Below are positions 2,217-10,051 of a stretch of 15,132 bases of DNA, one piece after another (the first letter of the stretch is position 1; each line of letters starts with the position of its first letter). Below the pieces are notes generated by a model. The model saw only the letters and a program-made list of their open reading frames with translations. It did no database searches and had not been told where the DNA came from. Source of the DNA: a virus (taxonomy: Duplodnaviria; Heunggongvirae; Uroviricota; Caudoviricetes); the IMG/VR virus record IMGVR_UViG_2627853771_000002; one strand, written 5' to 3'. A program made the position numbers and the translations under genes.

Positions 2217-2347
2217 GCTGTCCACCATTCAATAAACATGCAGATACCAACGGTTACTACGGCAATCAGCACCCAGCAGATCACATCTAACAGGGCGGCG
2301 AGCCGACGCAGGGTGTATTTGCTGTAATTCTCAGGTTCAAAATTCAT
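2213..2347 (-). CDS. Small single-pass membrane protein (44 aa)
   Basis: ATG at 2347-2345 preceded by GGAGG; translation MNFEPENYSKYTLRRLAALLDVICWVLIAVVTVGICMFIEWWTA with a hydrophobic C-terminal half. ATGA overlap with the ParB-like stop and with the next ORF's start. Confidence 0.4.
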   Translation of the reverse strand: MNFEPENYSKYTLRRLAALLDVICWVLIAVVTVGICMFIEWWTA

Positions 2348-3129
2348 TGCGCCTCCCCAAGCACCCAGCGCAGAGCCTCGGCATATTCGCCACTGGCATC
2401 TTCGAGTGCTTTTGTAATTTCTTTGCGGGTTTTCAGGCGCGGCTTTGCATCACCGAGGATCTGACGCTGACGCCGAGCTTTTTCATGGCCCGTGGTGCCG
2501 GCGGTCGCTGTCTCGATCTGCTTGACCTTCTCTCGTTGCTCTTCGGGTTTAAGCGATGCCAACTGACGCGCCTGGGTAACAGTGACCGTTCCGGACTCCA
2601 CTGCATCGCGAACAGCTTGGGTGGCATCCAGCAGTGACAGAGTTGCGCGTACGGTCTGGACACTCACGCCAAACATCAGCGCTAAATCATCCTCATCGTG
2701 CCCGCGCTCCAGCGCATCAGCCATTTTCTTTGCTCGGCCTAGCGGCGTATCTGCCTGGCGGATTTCGTTAGCACTTACCATCGCCTGCGCCATGCGAATG
2801 GCAGAGCCACGTTTAGGGACTCCCGGAACCAGTAACGGTTCTTTGCCCAATTTTGACAGACGCTTATTGGCTTCCAGTGTATGGCGCACACGCTGGCGAC
2901 CATCAACCACACAAGACAGCCCTGTTTCCGGGTCTTTCCAGACGATAATCGGCTCAAGAACGCCCTGGTCCATGATGTTCAGCACCATTGCCTCGCTGAT
3001 AGGCAGGTGGATACGCTCATCGTAAAGCGGGTGCGTTTTGTCGGTAACCAGGTGCAGTTTTTCAGGTTCAAACGCTAAAACGTTCGTTTTGCCACTCGCG
3101 CCATATACCAGCTTTGAGTCTTTAGCCAT
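2344..3129 (-). CDS. ParB-like nuclease-domain (ParB/Srx fold) protein
   Basis: 261-aa ORF with a ParB N-terminal-domain-like core (EPIIVWKDPETGLSCVVDGRQRVRH) and an HTH-like segment (DDLALMFGVSVQTVRATL). Start ATG at 3129 shares its A with the upstream gene's TGA (TGATG). Confidence 0.7.
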   Translation of the reverse strand: MAKDSKLVYGASGKTNVLAFEPEKLHLVTDKTHPLYDERIHLPISEAMVLNIMDQGVLEPIIVWKDPETGLSCVVDGRQRVRHTLEANKRLSKLGKEPLLVPGVPKRGSAIRMAQAMVSANEIRQADTPLGRAKKMADALERGHDEDDLALMFGVSVQTVRATLSLLDATQAVRDAVESGTVTVTQARQLASLKPEEQREKVKQIETATAGTTGHEKARRQRQILGDAKPRLKTRKEITKALEDASGEYAEALRWVLGEAQ

Positions 3130-3428
3130 CAGAGAGCCTCCACGTTACGGAAGCTGGTGGGGCAAATTGCCTTCAAATCGCGCATAGCCTCTAGAACATG
3201 CATATTTGTGCGATTCTTGGTGTGTCGCTCGGTCAGGCGATCACACTCTTTCGCCCATGATTTGACCTCTGCAAGAAGGGCGTCACGTTCGGTGCGCGTC
3301 TGGCGCAGAGCTACATTCGAAACATCGAGGACGGTAGCCAGTTCCTTGATGATTGCTGCCTGTTCTGGTGGCATAGTTTTGGCTATTTCGTACGCCTGTT
3401 TAATCAGTTGTTTTGCTGTCTTAGCCAT
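3129..3428 (-). CDS. Hypothetical protein (99 aa), first gene of the leftward operon
   Basis: ATG at 3428-3426 preceded by GGAGAA; translation MAKTAKQLIKQAYEIAKTMPPEQAAIIKELATVLDVS.... The ORF track extends to 3479 only through a TTG. No family recognised. Confidence 0.55.
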   Translation of the reverse strand: MAKTAKQLIKQAYEIAKTMPPEQAAIIKELATVLDVSNVALRQTRTERDALLAEVKSWAKECDRLTERHTKNRTNMHVLEAMRDLKAICPTSFRNVEAL

Positions 3429-3721
3429 CTTTTGTTCTCCATCTGACGCTCTGCAACGCGTAAATTTAGGGTGCAGCAACCCAACCCATGAGAATGGGTG
3501 AATAGCTGGTTAAAATTTCTTGCTGATGGGGGACCGCCACTGCAATGGCGGTACGTTAGTTCTCCACACAACACAGAAGAGCACCTGCGGCCGCAAATCC
3601 GCTCGGGCGGATTGTGTTAGGGCACGTCACTCGGTGGTGCTCTGATGTCTTTTGTAAAAGGGCGAACCAGAAACAATGGGGAAACTGGTGCCGCCAAGAT
3701 GACATAGTCCATCAGACTCAC

Positions 3722-3772: not shown

Positions 3773-3781
3773 GTCGGCGGT

Positions 3782-3807
3782 CAAAAAAAATCCCGCATAA
3801 GCGGGAT
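3782..3807 (-). terminator. Rho-independent terminator ending the repressor operon (hairpin plus T-run on the minus strand)
   Basis: Stem ATCCCGC/GCGGGAT (3790-3807) with loop ATAA; an A8 run at 3782-3789 on the plus strand is a T8 run after the hairpin on the minus strand. Lies between the native stop of the nuclease-like gene (3838) and the operators. Confidence 0.5.
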
Positions 3808-3837
3808 TTGTGTGAAATAAAGCTAGTGTTTTTATGA

Positions 3838-3882
3838 TTATGGACGACGCTTTCTGAAATTCTCATCATTCTGTACATATTG
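3838..3882 (-). other. Orphaned native 3' end (14 codons plus stop) of the IS1-interrupted nuclease-like gene
   Basis: Joining the reading frame of CDS 4660-5769 across the target duplication continues ...L-QYVQNDENFRKRRP-stop, with TAA at 3840-3838. Confidence 0.45.
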
Positions 3883-3891
3883 TAAAGAATC
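3883..3891. repeat. IS1 target-site duplication, left copy (TAAAGAATC)
   Basis: The 9 bp immediately left of the IS1 end are identical to 4660-4668. Confidence 0.85.
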
Positions 3892-3946
3892 GGTGATGCT
3901 GCCAACTTACTGATTTAGTGTATGATGGTGTTTTTGAGGTGCTCCA

Positions 3947-4222
3947 GTGGCTTCTGTTTCTATCAGCTGTCCCTCCTGTTCAGCTACTGACGGGGTGGTG
4001 CGTAACGGCAAAAGCACCGCCGGACATCAGCGCTATCTCTGCTCTCACTGCCGTAAAACATGGCAACTGCAGTTCACTTACACCGCTTCTCAACCCGGTA
4101 CGCACCAGAAAATCATTGATATGGCCATGAATGGCGTTGGATGCCGGGCAACTGCCCGCATTATGGGCGTTGGCCTCAACACGATTTTACGTCACTTAAA
4201 AAACTCAGGCCGCAGTCGGTAA
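3947..4222 (+). CDS. insA: IS1 InsA
   Basis: 91-aa [43 protein letters not shown]..., recalled as IS1 InsA. Confidence 0.9.
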
Positions 4223-4644
4223 CCTCGCGCATACAGCCGGGCAGTGACGTCATCGTCTGCGCGGAAATGGACGAACAGTGGGGCTATGTCGGGGCTAAAT
4301 CGCGCCAGCGCTGGCTGTTTTACGCGTATGATAGTCTCCGGAAGACGGTTGTTGCGCACGTATTCGGTGAGCGCACTATGGCGACGCTGGGGCGTCTTAT
4401 GAGCCTGCTGTCACCCTTTGACGTGGTGATATGGATGACGGATGGCTGGCCGCTGTATGAATCCCGCCTGAAGGGAAAGCTGCACGTAATCAGCAAGCGA
4501 TATACGCAGCGAATTGAGCGGCATAACCTGAATCTGAGGCAGCACCTGGCACGGCTGGGACGGAAGTCGCTGTCGTTCTCAAAATCGGTGGAGCTGCATG
4601 ACAAAGTCATCGGGCATTATCTGAACATAAAACACTATCAATAA
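4141..4644 (+). CDS. insB: IS1 InsB (expressed as an InsAB' fusion by -1 frameshifting)
   Basis: 167-aa [28 protein letters not shown]... in the -1 frame relative to insA, overlapping its 3' end. Confidence 0.85.
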
Positions 4645-5769
4645 GTTGGAGTCATTACCTAAAGAATCAAGGATTAAACCTGAAATCCTTAATACATCCT
4701 CGGGATGTTCAATGAAAATACGATTGTTATCATGTTCAAGTCCGGCTCTTTTAATTTCATTACCGGTTATTTCATTGATATCAATTGGTAACTGTATGTT
4801 TGAGCGATTCTTCTTGTCATAATAGCGAACCAGCCAGCGGTTTGTTTTTCCTTGGAAAAGAATAGAGTAATAGGACTCTGTATCTTTGGCTTGAAGTTCG
4901 TATGCAGGGCCTATAATAGAACAGATTTTTTCAAATAAAATTCTTTCATTATAGGTTGTTACTATGTTGGGGTTCTCTGCATCGACAATATCTGCGCGCT
5001 CATCAATTACATTATTTTCAGTTACATCAGCAGGGGATTCTAATTCAGGAATAGATGTTCTTGATGAAAGACCAGAAACAACCATTTCACTTACTGACCT
5101 CTCTACGGCCTGCCTCACCAATGGAGTTATTGTTTCTATAAATCTTTGATTTAATTGACGACCAATATTTGCTCGTCCTGCAACATATCTAACAAATTCA
5201 TGATCTACTTCCCGAAGGCTTGTACTCACGACTTTAACAAATGCAGAAATATAAACACTCTCTTCTGCAAGGGTTCTTAGGGCCTCTGGTTTGAATTTGT
5301 CATGGCGGAATCTAAATAATTGCTCAGCATCAGAATCTTTAATGTCATCCATCATGATTCGTAAAAATGGCGTTGAATCCATTATATTTTTTTCATTGAG
5401 ATCCGTAAAAAAGCGCCATTCAATTCCATTAGTAATTGCTGATATTGTCACCTCAGGAGTAGAATTAAAATACCTAGATAATTGAGGACAATGGTTGTCC
5501 ATTTTTTCTTTACAACCTTTGGCCTCAATAAACATAACGGGAACACCTTGGCAGAATAGAGCATAATCTACACGCTCACCCACTTTCACACCAGGGAAGT
5601 CCGCACCATATTCAGCTTTGACTTTTTGCGGATCATATGCGTTAAAGCCTAGGATGTCCAAAAAAGGAAGTATCAAAGCCTGCTTGGTTGTCTCTTCCGT
5701 TGTGCAGTGTTCTCTAACATTTTTAACATGTTCAATGTGATTTTTAAGACGTACTTTGAAGTTTTCCAT
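4579..5769 (-). CDS. Repressor-linked protein with an HsdR-N-like PD-(D/E)xK nuclease N-terminal domain and an uncharacterised C-terminal domain; 3' end replaced by IS1 sequence
   Basis: ATG at 5769 (MENFKVRL...) after GGAGGA. The first 130 aa or so follow the pattern I associate with the type I restriction HsdR N-terminal nuclease fold (D...VDYALF...[10 protein letters not shown]...QLSRY...TNG). Codons 4660-5769 are native; 4579-4659 are read from the IS1 right end. Lies downstream of, and on the same strand as, the repressor gene, inside the operator-bounded immunity region. Confidence 0.6.
4660..4668. repeat. IS1 target-site duplication, right copy (TAAAGAATC)
   Basis: Identical to 3883-3891. 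Confidence 0.85.
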
Positions 5770-5939
5770 GCATCCTCCATGCAAAGTGAAAACCTGCTGT
5801 TAAATCAAAGCAAGTCACAATCCCGGATAGGCTTCATACAAGCCAATCCCCCACAGGGATTGAGTTATGCAAGCGAATCAATCTCAGAGCTTTTAACATG
5901 TATGGAGCTTAGAGATATTGTCCGTTAGACCATATAAGC

Positions 5940-6416
5940 TTAAGCTCTGGCTTTCGTTTGTTTTTTTCCATCTTCCTCCTGCTCTGCCCATCTCCTTATC
6001 TTCATCTCTAATGAGTCTAAATATGCTTTAGCATCGCTATCTACCCAGCCAGGTATACGCTGTCCTTGCTCTAAGAGGACAAAATCAATGATAGCCTTTT
6101 TTTCTCTCGAAGCCTTATTATAGAGCTCGTCAATAGAACCATTTTTAACTATGGGATCTGTTGCGGGCTCACATGTATCAGTTAGCGGGTATCCCTTTAG
6201 TCCCCAGTGCTCGGGGCCCACAACATCAGAAAAGTAGTTCCAAAGCTCTGGTAGCTTCTCTTTCGATATGGAGCCTTTATTGATCCAGTCATGGATTGAT
6301 GGGGGTTTTATTTTGAAATGACGTGCGATTTCCGCCTTACTCTTGGCAGAACCTATTGAAAGCTTCTTGTCTATGGCCTGCTCGATCGCTCGGCCCAATT
6401 CTTTACCACTAAGCAT
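5940..6416 (-). CDS. CI/RacR-like helix-turn-helix repressor with no S24 peptidase domain
   Basis: 158-aa ORF with an N-terminal HTH-like segment (LSGKELGRAIEQAIDKKLSIGSAKSKAEIARHFKIKPPSIHDW); no Ala-Gly/Ser-Lys autocleavage features seen. Divergent from a Cro/YdaS-like gene across an operator-containing region. Confidence 0.7.
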   Translation of the reverse strand: MLSGKELGRAIEQAIDKKLSIGSAKSKAEIARHFKIKPPSIHDWINKGSISKEKLPELWNYFSDVVGPEHWGLKGYPLTDTCEPATDPIVKNGSIDELYNKASREKKAIIDFVLLEQGQRIPGWVDSDAKAYLDSLEMKIRRWAEQEEDGKKQTKARA

Positions 6417-6443
6417 TGCCTAATAATCCTCATAACCTATAGC

Positions 6444-6486
6444 TTAGGCAATTCCTATTGATTGTTTATTAGGCTTAGCCTAATAT
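6444..6486. promoter_or_regulatory. OR-like operator region with a rightward promoter
   Basis: Perfect 8+3+8 palindrome TATTAGGC-TTA-GCCTAATA at 6467-6485 and a degenerate copy at about 6444-6459. -35 TTGATT (6458-6463), 17-bp spacer, -10 TAATAT (6481-6486); the palindrome sits in the spacer. Confidence 0.55.
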
Positions 6487-6517
6487 CTGCTTGTGTGGAA
6501 ATCATAGGAATCCGTTT

Positions 6518-6781
6518 ATGAGAAGTAGCCTTGAAGCAATCAGTGAAGCCTGCCGCATTGTTGGGGGACAAGCCGCTTTGTCAAGGAATCTAGGCATCTC
6601 ATCACCAACAGTGAATCAATGGACAACGGGCATTAGGCAAATACCTGCGGAACGATGTCCTGCGATTGAGAAAGCTACTGGTGGTGCTGTCACCTGCGAA
6701 GAGCTTCGTCCTGACATTGACTGGGCCTATTTAAGAGGTGCAGCAATGCGAAAGCTTAATGTCACTGCATCAAATTTGTAA
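6518..6781 (+). CDS. YdaS/Cro-like HTH regulator
   Basis: 87 aa from the ATG at 6518 (AGGAA seven nt upstream). Motifs GGQAALSRNLGISSPTVNQW...IPAERCPAIEKATGGAVTCEELRPD match my recollection of the YdaS/Cro-type family. The ORF track starts at a TTG at 6491. Confidence 0.7.
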   Translation: MRSSLEAISEACRIVGGQAALSRNLGISSPTVNQWTTGIRQIPAERCPAIEKATGGAVTCEELRPDIDWAYLRGAAMRKLNVTASNL

Positions 6782-8138: not shown

Positions 8139-8981
8139 ATGAAACTGACTTTACCATTTCCACCGAGCGTAAATAGTTACTGGCGCGCCCCGAGCAAGGG
8201 ACCGCTGAAAGGCAGGCATCTGGTAAGCGAGACAGGGCGCAAGTTCCAGCAGGCAGCGAGAGCGGCGATTATTGAGCAACTGCGGGCCGTTCCCCGGCCA
8301 TCCTCAGATCTGGCCGAGGTTCACATAAACGTTGTTGAGGGCGCGGGGCTTGAGCTTGATCCTGATGATGATTCACAGGTTCTTAAAGCGATTGGTGGCG
8401 GTCGCCTGCTTAATATTGTCACCTTTACTAAGTCAGGGACTTACACTCCAACTAAAGGGACGAAAAGAGTGCGGGTGAAAGTTTGGGGAGCGGGGGGAGG
8501 TGGCCAGAATGCTCCAGTTAGTGTGGGCGCATCTGGAGGTTGTGCTGGTGGATTTTCGGAAGGGTTATTTAATATTTCTGATAACGAAACTATATCTGTG
8601 ACGATAGGTACTGGTGGCAGTGCTGTTGCTGCTGGTGTCTCGTCTAAAGGCGGGAATGGTGGTGATACAAGGTTCGGGAGTTTAATCTCAGCTACTGGAG
8701 GGAGTGGTGGCGGGGCTACAGTTCCTGCTGGAGGTATCGGAAGTGGCGGGAACATTTTAAATATTACTGGCGAAATATCTCAAGGTGGTCTGTATTATGG
8801 TTCTGATGCTTTTATTGGCGGGGCTGGAGGATCTGCATTTTCATCAACGGGTGGCAATGGCCACTTCGGTAGTTCTGGCGATGATGGCGGTTTCCCCGGC
8901 TCAGGTGGTGCCGGGGGGAATGGTAACTATTCATCAGGAAAAGGAGCGAATGGTTTAGTTTACCTTGAAGAGTTTTCCTGA
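8139..8981 (+). CDS. RusA-like N-terminal region fused in frame to a glycine-rich, fibre-like C-terminal region
   Basis: N-terminus MKLTLPFPPSVNSYWR... resembles the RusA resolvase N-terminus (ITLPWPPSNNRYYR), and ...GGGRLLNIVTFT resembles the RusA C-terminus. From about aa 110 the protein is a GGxGG-rich tract of about 170 aa. ATG at 8139 follows AAGGGGG. Confidence 0.5.
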   Translation: MKLTLPFPPSVNSYWRAPSKGPLKGRHLVSETGRKFQQAARAAIIEQLRAVPRPSSDLAEVHINVVEGAGLELDPDDDSQVLKAIGGGRLLNIVTFTKSGTYTPTKGTKRVRVKVWGAGGGGQNAPVSVGASGGCAGGFSEGLFNISDNETISVTIGTGGSAVAAGVSSKGGNGGDTRFGSLISATGGSGGGATVPAGGIGSGGNILNITGEISQGGLYYGSDAFIGGAGGSAFSSTGGNGHFGSSGDDGGFPGSGGAGGNGNYSSGKGANGLVYLEEFS

Positions 8982-10051
8982 TTATTTTTGCTTTGAGCGT
9001 CCGCCCTTATTTTTGCTCTAATTTTAATTAGTGGCTTGTCTATTAATATTACACAAACGATCCCAAGTGCAATTGATATTGGGTAGCCTAATAAAAAGAT
9101 GGATAAGCCACGATTTTCACCACCAATAGCAAGCCATGCTAGAAATCCACCAAAATATTGACAAAGAAAAATTGGATAGGCCAGGTCACCAAACCACTTG
9201 AGTATTTTCTCAAGATGTATGTTTGTCTTTATTTTTAATAATACCAGGGTTGTAAACAATGCTATTACATTATTGGTGTAGTAAAGTATTATGTTGTACT
9301 GACCTAATGGATTAATTGTATATAAATGCCAATTGGTAATAAAAATCCCGATGCAAATAAATGTTATTAAAAAAGCTTTGTGTGGAGAAAGATACATAGC
9401 TTTGAACTTTCTATGGGCAAAATAACCCAGAGAACCCATGCTAAAAGGAAGTGTTGCAGCAAGGAATGGGAAATACGCCATATCAAAAGAATGGTGTACT
9501 ACATATACGTAAGCATGATAAAGCAGTGAAAGCAGAATCGACGTAATGGCTGTAAATTTATTTCGGGCTATGAAAAGCCACAATAAAAAATAACATGTTA
9601 TCTCAACACCCACTGACCATGATGATGTGACTATTCTGAATCTATTACCATCAATAGCAAAGTGATAAATGGATGAAAAGGCACCGAATGGATTTGCTAC
9701 AGCATTATCAGAAAGGAAAGCCCAGGGGAAGATTAAGAGGTTTCCTAATAAATCTCCAGGTAAGAAATTGCCTGTCCAGTTTGAGTGGAATTCCTTTGCG
9801 GATGGAATTAATTTTATAATAAGAAAGCCCATGACGAGAAAAAATATATATGCCGGGAATAACCTCAGTATTCTATTTTTCCAAAACATAGAGAAGTTGA
9901 ACTTGTATGTTTCATGCAAAATGTATGTTATTAAAAAACCACTAATAACATAGAAGCAATTCACTGCAAAGTTGCCAAGTGCAGGTATGCGAGCCGTTAA
10001 GTGAAAAGCAATGACGCACGATGCCAAAAAAAACCTTATTAGGCCAAGCAT
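8960..10051 (-). CDS. Acyltransferase-3 family integral membrane protein (O-antigen O-acetyltransferase-like, Oac/OafA type)
   Basis: 363-aa very hydrophobic ORF with motifs typical of the family (RFFLASCVIAFH, FYVISGFLITY); strongly AT-rich relative to its flanks. Its 3' end overlaps the convergent glycine-rich ORF by about 22 bp. Confidence 0.75.
   Translation of the reverse strand: MLGLIRFFLASCVIAFHLTARIPALGNFAVNCFYVISGFLITYILHETYKFNFSMFWKNRILRLFPAYIFFLVMGFLIIKLIPSAKEFHSNWTGNFLPGDLLGNLLIFPWAFLSDNAVANPFGAFSSIYHFAIDGNRFRIVTSSWSVGVEITCYFLLWLFIARNKFTAITSILLSLLYHAYVYVVHHSFDMAYFPFLAATLPFSMGSLGYFAHRKFKAMYLSPHKAFLITFICIGIFITNWHLYTINPLGQYNIILYYTNNVIALFTTLVLLKIKTNIHLEKILKWFGDLAYPIFLCQYFGGFLAWLAIGGENRGLSIFLLGYPISIALGIVCVILIDKPLIKIRAKIRADAQSKNNQENSSR

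Follow-up and report, generated by a model that had tools for sequence, protein, structure and literature searches.

Introduction

The interval immediately behind the repressor gene of temperate phages, occupied by rexAB in lambda and by bstA in BTP1, is a recognised hotspot for accessory, lysogeny-expressed defence genes (PMC8585504; PMC12724215). Insertion sequences (IS elements) also have preferred targets: IS1 favours A+T-rich sites of 8-9 bp (PMC10359306), and A+T-rich prophage DNA that is bound by H-NS captures IS elements (PMC11335895). The 15,132-nucleotide viral record IMGVR_UViG_2627853771_000002, the whole of which is called the window here and supplies the coordinates unless another genome is named, carries a copy of IS1 in the 3' end of a nuclease-like gene. 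That gene lies on the minus strand behind a RacR-type repressor, in a remnant of a lambdoid prophage.

The event belongs to a known kind of mutation, the element behind it is equally familiar, and the public databases already contain the resulting protein; taken alone, this is a textbook IS1 insertion that changes nothing. The residual interest lies in the uncharacterised, repressor-linked nuclease family to which the interrupted gene belongs, and in the recurrence with which IS elements disrupt it. Our preferred account of the whole combines a simple insertion of IS1A, a likely loss of function of the interrupted gene and a target bias of IS elements in a decaying prophage remnant, and we put its probability at roughly 0.7. 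In this account IS1A inserted once into the A+T-rich sequence TAAAGAATC, at codons 368-370 of a 384-codon gene in the prophage remnant.

The IS1 element and its empty site

The 768 bp between two copies of TAAAGAATC begin with GGTGATGCTGCCAACTTACTGAT at the 5' end and finish with AAGTTGGAGTCATTACC at the 3' end. This segment (3892-4659, plus strand) is a complete IS1 of the IS1A type, as judged by its identity with annotated copies and by the Pfam and NCBIfam IS1 models; NCBIfam transpos_IS1 matches it. The inverted repeats (IRL, 3892-3914; IRR, 4637-4659) match at 18 of 23 positions. On the plus strand, insA (3947-4222) encodes 91 amino acids (aa) with a zinc ribbon (PF03811, Zn_ribbon_InsA, 1e-21) and a helix-turn-helix domain (PF12759, HTH_Tnp_IS1, 5e-31). 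The A6C slippery site for programmed -1 frameshifting is at 4198-4204, and reading with the -1 shift yields, without stops, the 232-aa InsAB' transposase (3947-4644, plus strand; DDE_Tnp_IS1, PF03400, E 6e-78). The transposase genes are convergent with the gene that the element interrupts. The element is 767/768 (99.9%) identical to copies annotated as IS1A on E. coli and Klebsiella plasmids, and more than 5000 plasmid records hold an IS1 copy at 95% identity or above. With reference IS1A it shares the length of 768 bp, the imperfect inverted repeats of ~23 bp, the A6C frameshift between insA and insB' and the 9-bp A+T-rich target duplication; it differs by one base from the commonest copies and by two from the IS1 in the same gene of NZ_OZ547461.1. 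All of the features that define the family (length and inverted repeats beginning GGT(G/A)ATG, frameshifted insA-insB', a 9-bp duplication relative to the empty site, near-identity to IS1A) are present, and the element is an intact, ordinary IS1A.

The left copy of the duplicated target (3883-3891) reads GATTCTTTA on the gene strand and specifies codons D368-S369-L370 of the orphaned 3' end, while the right copy (4660-4668) specifies the same three residues, with which the native coding part of the interrupted gene now ends. No third copy of TAAAGAATC exists on either strand of the window, and the chance that two fixed 9-mers match is 4^-9, or ~4e-6. The original prediction had seen a complete IS1 within a perfect 9-bp duplication, and both are there: the 768 bp, the inverted repeats, insA, A6C and InsAB' are all found, with identical 9-mers at the two ends of the element and a single copy at the empty site.

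That empty site was rebuilt from 400 bp of each flank and one copy of TAAAGAATC, and was searched against 5426 complete E. coli genomes. It matches NZ_CP145662.1 at 800 of 800 positions in one uninterrupted piece with a single TAAAGAATC, and NZ_OZ547461.1 at 99.4%, also in one piece. Since the empty site is found unbroken, the flanks are naturally contiguous, the 9-mers are a target duplication and the segment at 3838-3882 is the true continuation of the gene. The product of joining 4669 to 3891 is moreover a deposited protein, WP_004184742.1 of NZ_CP145662.1 (384 aa), and the exact 384-aa restored sequence is found on at least 1000 contigs. The uninterrupted allele that the original prediction proposed to look for among relatives has thus been recovered in the form expected, and the two observations that might have overturned a simple transposition, that 3838-3882 does not naturally continue the gene or that the 9-mers are not a duplication, are contradicted by the same comparison.

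The alternative to simple insertion would be an assembly artefact at a repeated IS1, or an IS1-mediated rearrangement that joined unrelated sequences. IS1 is a multicopy element, and short-read assemblies often misplace such repeats. Against these considerations stand the identical 9-bp duplication exactly at the two IS ends, flanks that are contiguous at 800 of 800 positions in an independent genome, with reading frame and stop restored exactly, and the independent deposition of the fusion protein on a 4.60-Mb contig. Misassembly or rearrangement is effectively excluded, its residual chance being negligible. Nothing in the evidence contradicts the transposition itself: one copy of IS1A was placed by a single simple insertion, and for that event, taken alone, we are as good as certain.

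Age of the insertion

The insertion was also predicted to be recent, and the comparisons bear this out. None of the 5426 complete E. coli genomes shares it. The native part of the gene is 100% identical to the gene of NZ_CP145662.1, and the flanks are 99.97-100% identical to the same genome. Among ~15 billion proteins, the 396-aa fusion product (AKM35537.1 / WP_244471455.1) comes from one contig only, of 4,603,777 bp, from E. coli. An exact 32-mer across the left junction has no match among the species-representative genomes of GTDB, and a 401-aa version of the fusion, read from an upstream TTG, is not on record in the protein collection. The perfect duplication, the 1-base difference of the IS1, the near-identical flanks, the unshared insertion and the single-contig fusion protein together support a recent insertion, limited to a single lineage.

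Changes to the reading frame and its surroundings

The native part of the gene that remains in place comprises codons 1-370 (4660-5769, minus strand). Its start is likely the ATG at 5769; the TTG at 5784 is the start that a mechanical reading of open reading frames (ORFs) gives. Beyond L370 the reading frame runs antisense through IRR and the end of insB' for 26 IS1-encoded codons and a stop (4579-4659, minus strand; stop 4579-4581). The allele therefore ends ...LILDSL followed by these 26 codons, at 396 aa. In the uninterrupted gene, read by joining 4669 to 3891, the same ...LILDSL is followed by QYVQNDENFRKRRP, 14 codons that end the 384-aa protein at the stop at 3838-3840. These 14 codons and their stop (3838-3882, minus strand), which include a conserved V-x-N-D-x-N-F motif, are now orphaned on the far side of the element. 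A strong intrinsic terminator of the gene or operon (3779-3809, minus strand; a 9-bp stem at 3809-3788, then a T-run) stands 29 nt past the native stop; from the fusion stop it is ~770 nt away, with antisense IS1 between. The exchange of 14 native for 26 IS1-encoded codons, the legible orphaned end with its stop, and the separation of gene from terminator had all been read from the sequence beforehand, and the codon counts, the joined reading frame, the empty-site genome and the displaced stem are in agreement with that reading.

The product of the interrupted gene

HsdR, the restriction subunit with which the product of this gene has been equated in annotation, is a protein of ~1000 aa in which the nuclease domain is accompanied by an SF2 translocase motor (ResIII / Helicase_C), and whose gene is linked to hsdM and hsdS. 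The 384-aa protein shares with it the N-terminal nuclease domain with its D...ExK triad, but has neither the motor nor the partners: here the nuclease domain leads into a helical segment, then a variable linker and finally a YdhG/YjbR-like domain. The only Pfam match on the protein is the HsdR-N nuclease domain at residues 25-128 (PF04313, 2e-14); its first ~130 residues match HSDR_N (PF04313 / PF13588). Across an alignment of 32 sequences the PD-(D/E)xK residues D68, E82 and K84 do not vary, and the N-terminal domain superposes on the nuclease domains of HsdR, BpuSI and DrdV. The protein thus has two domains: at the N-terminus a PD-(D/E)xK nuclease of the HsdR-N type, and at the C-terminus one that is YdhG/YjbR-like. 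That it is nuclease-like and lies in an immunity region was part of the original prediction, and the HsdR-N domain and the location behind a RacR-type repressor agree with it.

No helicase domain is found by Pfam, and the protein falls far short of the NCBIfam HsdR equivalog (14 bits, cut-off 729). No hsdM or hsdS adjoins the gene in any locus whose gene table was read, the neighbours instead being a prophage repressor, cro, a ParB-like gene and recombination genes. Since the protein fails two features of HsdR, the motor domain and the linkage to hsdM/hsdS, the name 'type I restriction endonuclease' is misleading; on comparison of sequences it is a domain-derived label and no functional assignment. 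The point has a practical side. The 396-aa fusion stands in GenBank and RefSeq, unflagged, as an ordinary 'type I restriction endonuclease' (AKM35537.1 / WP_244471455.1), while what these accessions hold is a chimeric allele, probably impaired, and the protein from which it derives is no type I restriction enzyme.

Among 5.8 billion protein clusters, a search identified 1337 relatives. The best 120 of these are almost all 380-391 aa long and are spread across the Enterobacterales, and the named members of the cluster of the intact protein are mostly Klebsiella. No model of PADLOC-DB v2 matches the protein at E up to 1, and no study of this nuclease-like family was found in the literature.

Is the IS1 allele functional?

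The original prediction suggested that the gene may be an altered allele and not a clean knockout. The first half of this stands, in that the reading frame stays open; the second sits less well with the conservation of the lost tail and the position of the cut, which make impairment the likelier outcome. Conservation was measured in an alignment of 32 relatives that are 62-99% identical to the restored protein. In the lost tail D376, N378 and F379 never vary, and conservation at V373 and N375 is 90% or higher. Mean column identity is 0.84 across residues 371-380, higher than over the full protein (0.79) or elsewhere in the C-terminal domain (0.71). As a proxy for structure, the AlphaFold model of a protein that is 99% identical to the restored one (P0001) has high confidence at residues 1-140 and 260-380 and low confidence at 160-255. 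On this model the cut, after L370, falls within the last helix of the C-terminal domain (356-374, pLDDT ~90). The mean hydropathy of the tail goes from -2.45 in the native protein to +0.34 in the IS1-encoded one.

The insertion acts in three ways. It exchanges a conserved hydrophilic tail for 26 mostly hydrophobic residues encoded by IS1, it truncates the last helix of the predicted C-terminal domain, and it sets the coding region apart from its terminator by 768 bp of polar IS1 DNA. Because the clipped tail is conserved, the last helix cut, the hydropathy of the tail changed and the terminator displaced, the allele is likelier to be non-functional or strongly weakened than to be sound.

Several points weigh on the other side. 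The insertion leaves the catalytic domain as it was and keeps 96% of the protein in an open reading frame; the conservation of the tail applies to Enterobacterales relatives only (at least 62% identical); and distant phage homologues align only to about residue 330. One may accordingly picture a fusion protein that still functions, the exchange at its C-terminus being neutral or mildly modifying: the open frame of 396 codons includes the nuclease domain and 370 of the 384 native residues intact, NCBI annotates an ordinary CDS and not a pseudogene, and the final four residues of the native protein vary and are placed by the model with little confidence. Yet the lost segment includes the invariant D376, N378 and F379 and the near-invariant V373 and N375, the cut interrupts the final helix of a domain that is modelled with confidence, the replacement tail is hydrophobic, and the mRNA, deprived of its adjacent terminator hairpin, would read antisense into IS1, an element that is classically polar. 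A functional fusion is on balance unlikely, and we favour an impaired allele.

Other IS elements in and beside the gene

Nine complete E. coli genomes carry the same prophage remnant, and in all nine the gene is split, deleted or separated from the repressor by an IS element; there are no undisturbed loci. In NZ_OZ547461.1 (L003, 8240-9007) a second IS1A, flanked by the 8-bp duplication CATTTTTT (window equivalent 5500-5507), splits the gene near codon 90. In NZ_CP145662.1 (L001, ~8566-9823) the gene is whole and a 1258-bp IS3 with a 3-bp duplication, GGC (window 5830-5832), lies between it and the repressor. Seven further genomes have ISKpn26, flanked by CTAG (3823-3826) on one side and CTAA (5713-5716) on the other, with the DNA corresponding to window 3827-5712, and hence almost all of the gene, missing; in NZ_CP019280.1 (L002), for example, ISKpn26 at 5336-6526 takes the place of that segment. 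As the two flanks do not match, an ISKpn26 insertion would have been followed by a deletion. Two proteins on record, P0126 (E. coli, 378 aa) and P0133 (K. pneumoniae, 381 aa), have the end of an IS5-family element fused in frame at codon 19 (...RTFL-REHC), so that they begin with MGRNDLLIRTFL- and MTNMISYQGLVRTFL-, respectively. Their fusion point, 5713-5716, is the CTAA of the right ISKpn26 junction, which suggests that this site is a hotspot for the IS5 family and that the deletion arose by a two-step route.

The IS1 event of the window is one among several independent IS hits. For their recurrence, target bias in a decaying remnant appears to be the simplest explanation, since the gene has a G+C content of 37% (against 54% in the flank at 2344-3479 and 44% in racR), IS1 has the preference for A+T already referred to, and H-NS-bound prophage DNA captures IS elements. 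A horizontally acquired gene of this composition would attract IS elements, and the remnant that holds it would no longer be under purifying selection. There are precedents. The described IS hits in cas genes (PMC10359306) compare with what is found here, where IS1, IS3 and IS5-family elements lie in or beside a single A+T-rich nuclease-like gene in different strains. The likeness would extend to H-NS-directed hotspots in restriction-related genes of prophages (PMC11335895); the carriers compared here are few and partly clonal. Against target bias as the full answer, IS3 has no marked preference for A+T, and the bias may not be the sole cause of the recurrence. The accumulation of IS elements is not limited to the nuclease gene, because an ISEc52 (IS3 family; 10169-11338 of L003 in NZ_OZ547461.1) also splits the ydaS/cro-like gene of the same remnant.

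The hits may instead have been positively selected. A repressor-linked nuclease might be costly or self-damaging in E. coli when it has outlived the other parts of its prophage, for instance because a cognate self-immunity element was lost, and there would then be a fitness gain in inactivating it or in cutting its link to the promoter. In line with this, the gene is clipped, split, deleted or cut off by an IS element in the window and in 9/9 complete E. coli carriers of the remnant, and four of the five IS events of the ~8-kb remnant fall within the 2.1 kb of the gene and its leader (p ~0.02 for uniform insertion, by a rough binomial). Cases are known in which selection favoured the inactivation of nuclease-based defences by IS elements (PMC10359306), and genes of the BstA type, which occupy this slot, require a cognate self-immunity element (PMC8585504). 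Several observations tell against it. About 30 complete E. coli genomes have intact alleles of the family (~71% DNA identity), one of them behind a prophage repressor, which shows that the species tolerates the family, and at least 1000 contigs hold the identical protein undamaged, those with names being mostly Klebsiella. The sample of carriers is small and its members may be close relatives, seven of them sharing one ISKpn26 event; A+T richness provides a neutral alternative; and codon 370 of 384 is an odd place at which to inactivate a gene that is toxic. As an explanation, selection against an orphan nuclease that carries a cost ranks below target bias, and we think it improbable. The idea that the family is generally toxic in E. 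coli was set aside, as those ~30 complete genomes keep intact, more distant alleles.

Whatever drives them, the natural IS alleles, the C-terminal clip of the window included, would be ready-made loss-of-function controls in any test of phage defence.

The slot behind the repressor and its other occupants

The RacR-type repressor gene (5940-6416, minus strand; NCBIfam RacR equivalog, 4e-76) lies upstream of the interrupted gene and in the same orientation, with the gene beginning 170 bp downstream of racR. A crude scan of the minus strand of this interval found no promoter-like or terminator-like site. The gene is probably co-transcribed with racR, which would be the source of its transcription; this assignment draws on synteny and on the lack of signals in that crude scan.

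The order of repressor and then gene recurs in every full-length, repressor-linked relative whose neighbourhood was read (L004-L013, L015 and L016, and also L017-L018 where a regulator is annotated; in L019 the genes upstream of the nuclease gene are unannotated). It is found in an intact lambdoid prophage (L004), in lambdoid prophages of Citrobacter and Morganella, where the gap between the two genes is only 8-21 bp, in Mu-like prophages of Salmonella, in E. coli STEC384, and in the isolated, 38-kb Klebsiella phage KpF5 (L016, OR327748.1), whose protein is 99% identical. Homologues of 30-37% identity stand behind a regulator in Streptococcus phage IPP25, where one small gene intervenes, and in a Clostridium phage; Lacticaseibacillus phage P7.1 has a like layout with unannotated genes upstream. 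One E. coli allele of the family is located among tail genes instead. A conserved nuclease-fold gene thus occupies the rexAB/bstA slot in phages of Enterobacterales, Streptococcus and Clostridium, and, less certainly, of Lacticaseibacillus.

The gene has the slot and the orientation of lambda rexAB, of BTP1 bstA and of gipd474 / remAIN in the Gifsy phages: it faces away from cro and has its own terminator. It differs from these in what it encodes, RexAB being a sensor and an ion channel and GiPD474 a ParA-like ATPase, while here there is a nuclease-fold protein. The Gifsy gene gipd474 was considered as a match and rejected as an unrelated ParA-like ATPase.

By analogy of position and fold, the nuclease-like gene is a candidate for a lysogeny-expressed role in defence. 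A more ambitious reading can be built on this: that the family would be an uncharacterised single-gene anti-phage nuclease, acting in superinfection exclusion or abortive infection, that temperate phages of several bacterial phyla would express it from the repressor operon, and that its disruption by IS elements would be selection against a self-harmful orphan. That joint claim is something of a long shot.

KpF5 and the L004 prophage share the module of repressor and nuclease gene at 99% protein identity. Both have extra genes, rdgC for example, between the nuclease gene and the ParB-like gene, which the E. coli remnant lacks at that place. A lambdoid phage of the Klebsiella type may have given rise to the remnant.

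The prophage remnant

Comparison with related E. coli genomes shows the DNA around the insertion to be a cryptic lambdoid prophage remnant of ~7-8 kb (1094 to ~8330) in an E. coli chromosome. On its left, mtfA (1-837) is followed by tRNA-Ser(CGA) (892-981), the integration site, and by the integrase gene (1094-2071); a ParB-like gene (2344-3129) precedes the terminator and the interrupted gene. Beyond the repressor a YdaS/Cro gene (6491-6781) runs divergently from it, and a CII-like gene and then one for a Dam-like methylase lie downstream of this. The remnant closes with a fragment of rusA (~8139-8328), annotated as truncated in related genomes, past which come chromosomal genes for an acyltransferase and a sialate O-acetylesterase; the ORF at 8139-8981 probably runs out of the rusA fragment into DNA that has nothing to do with it.

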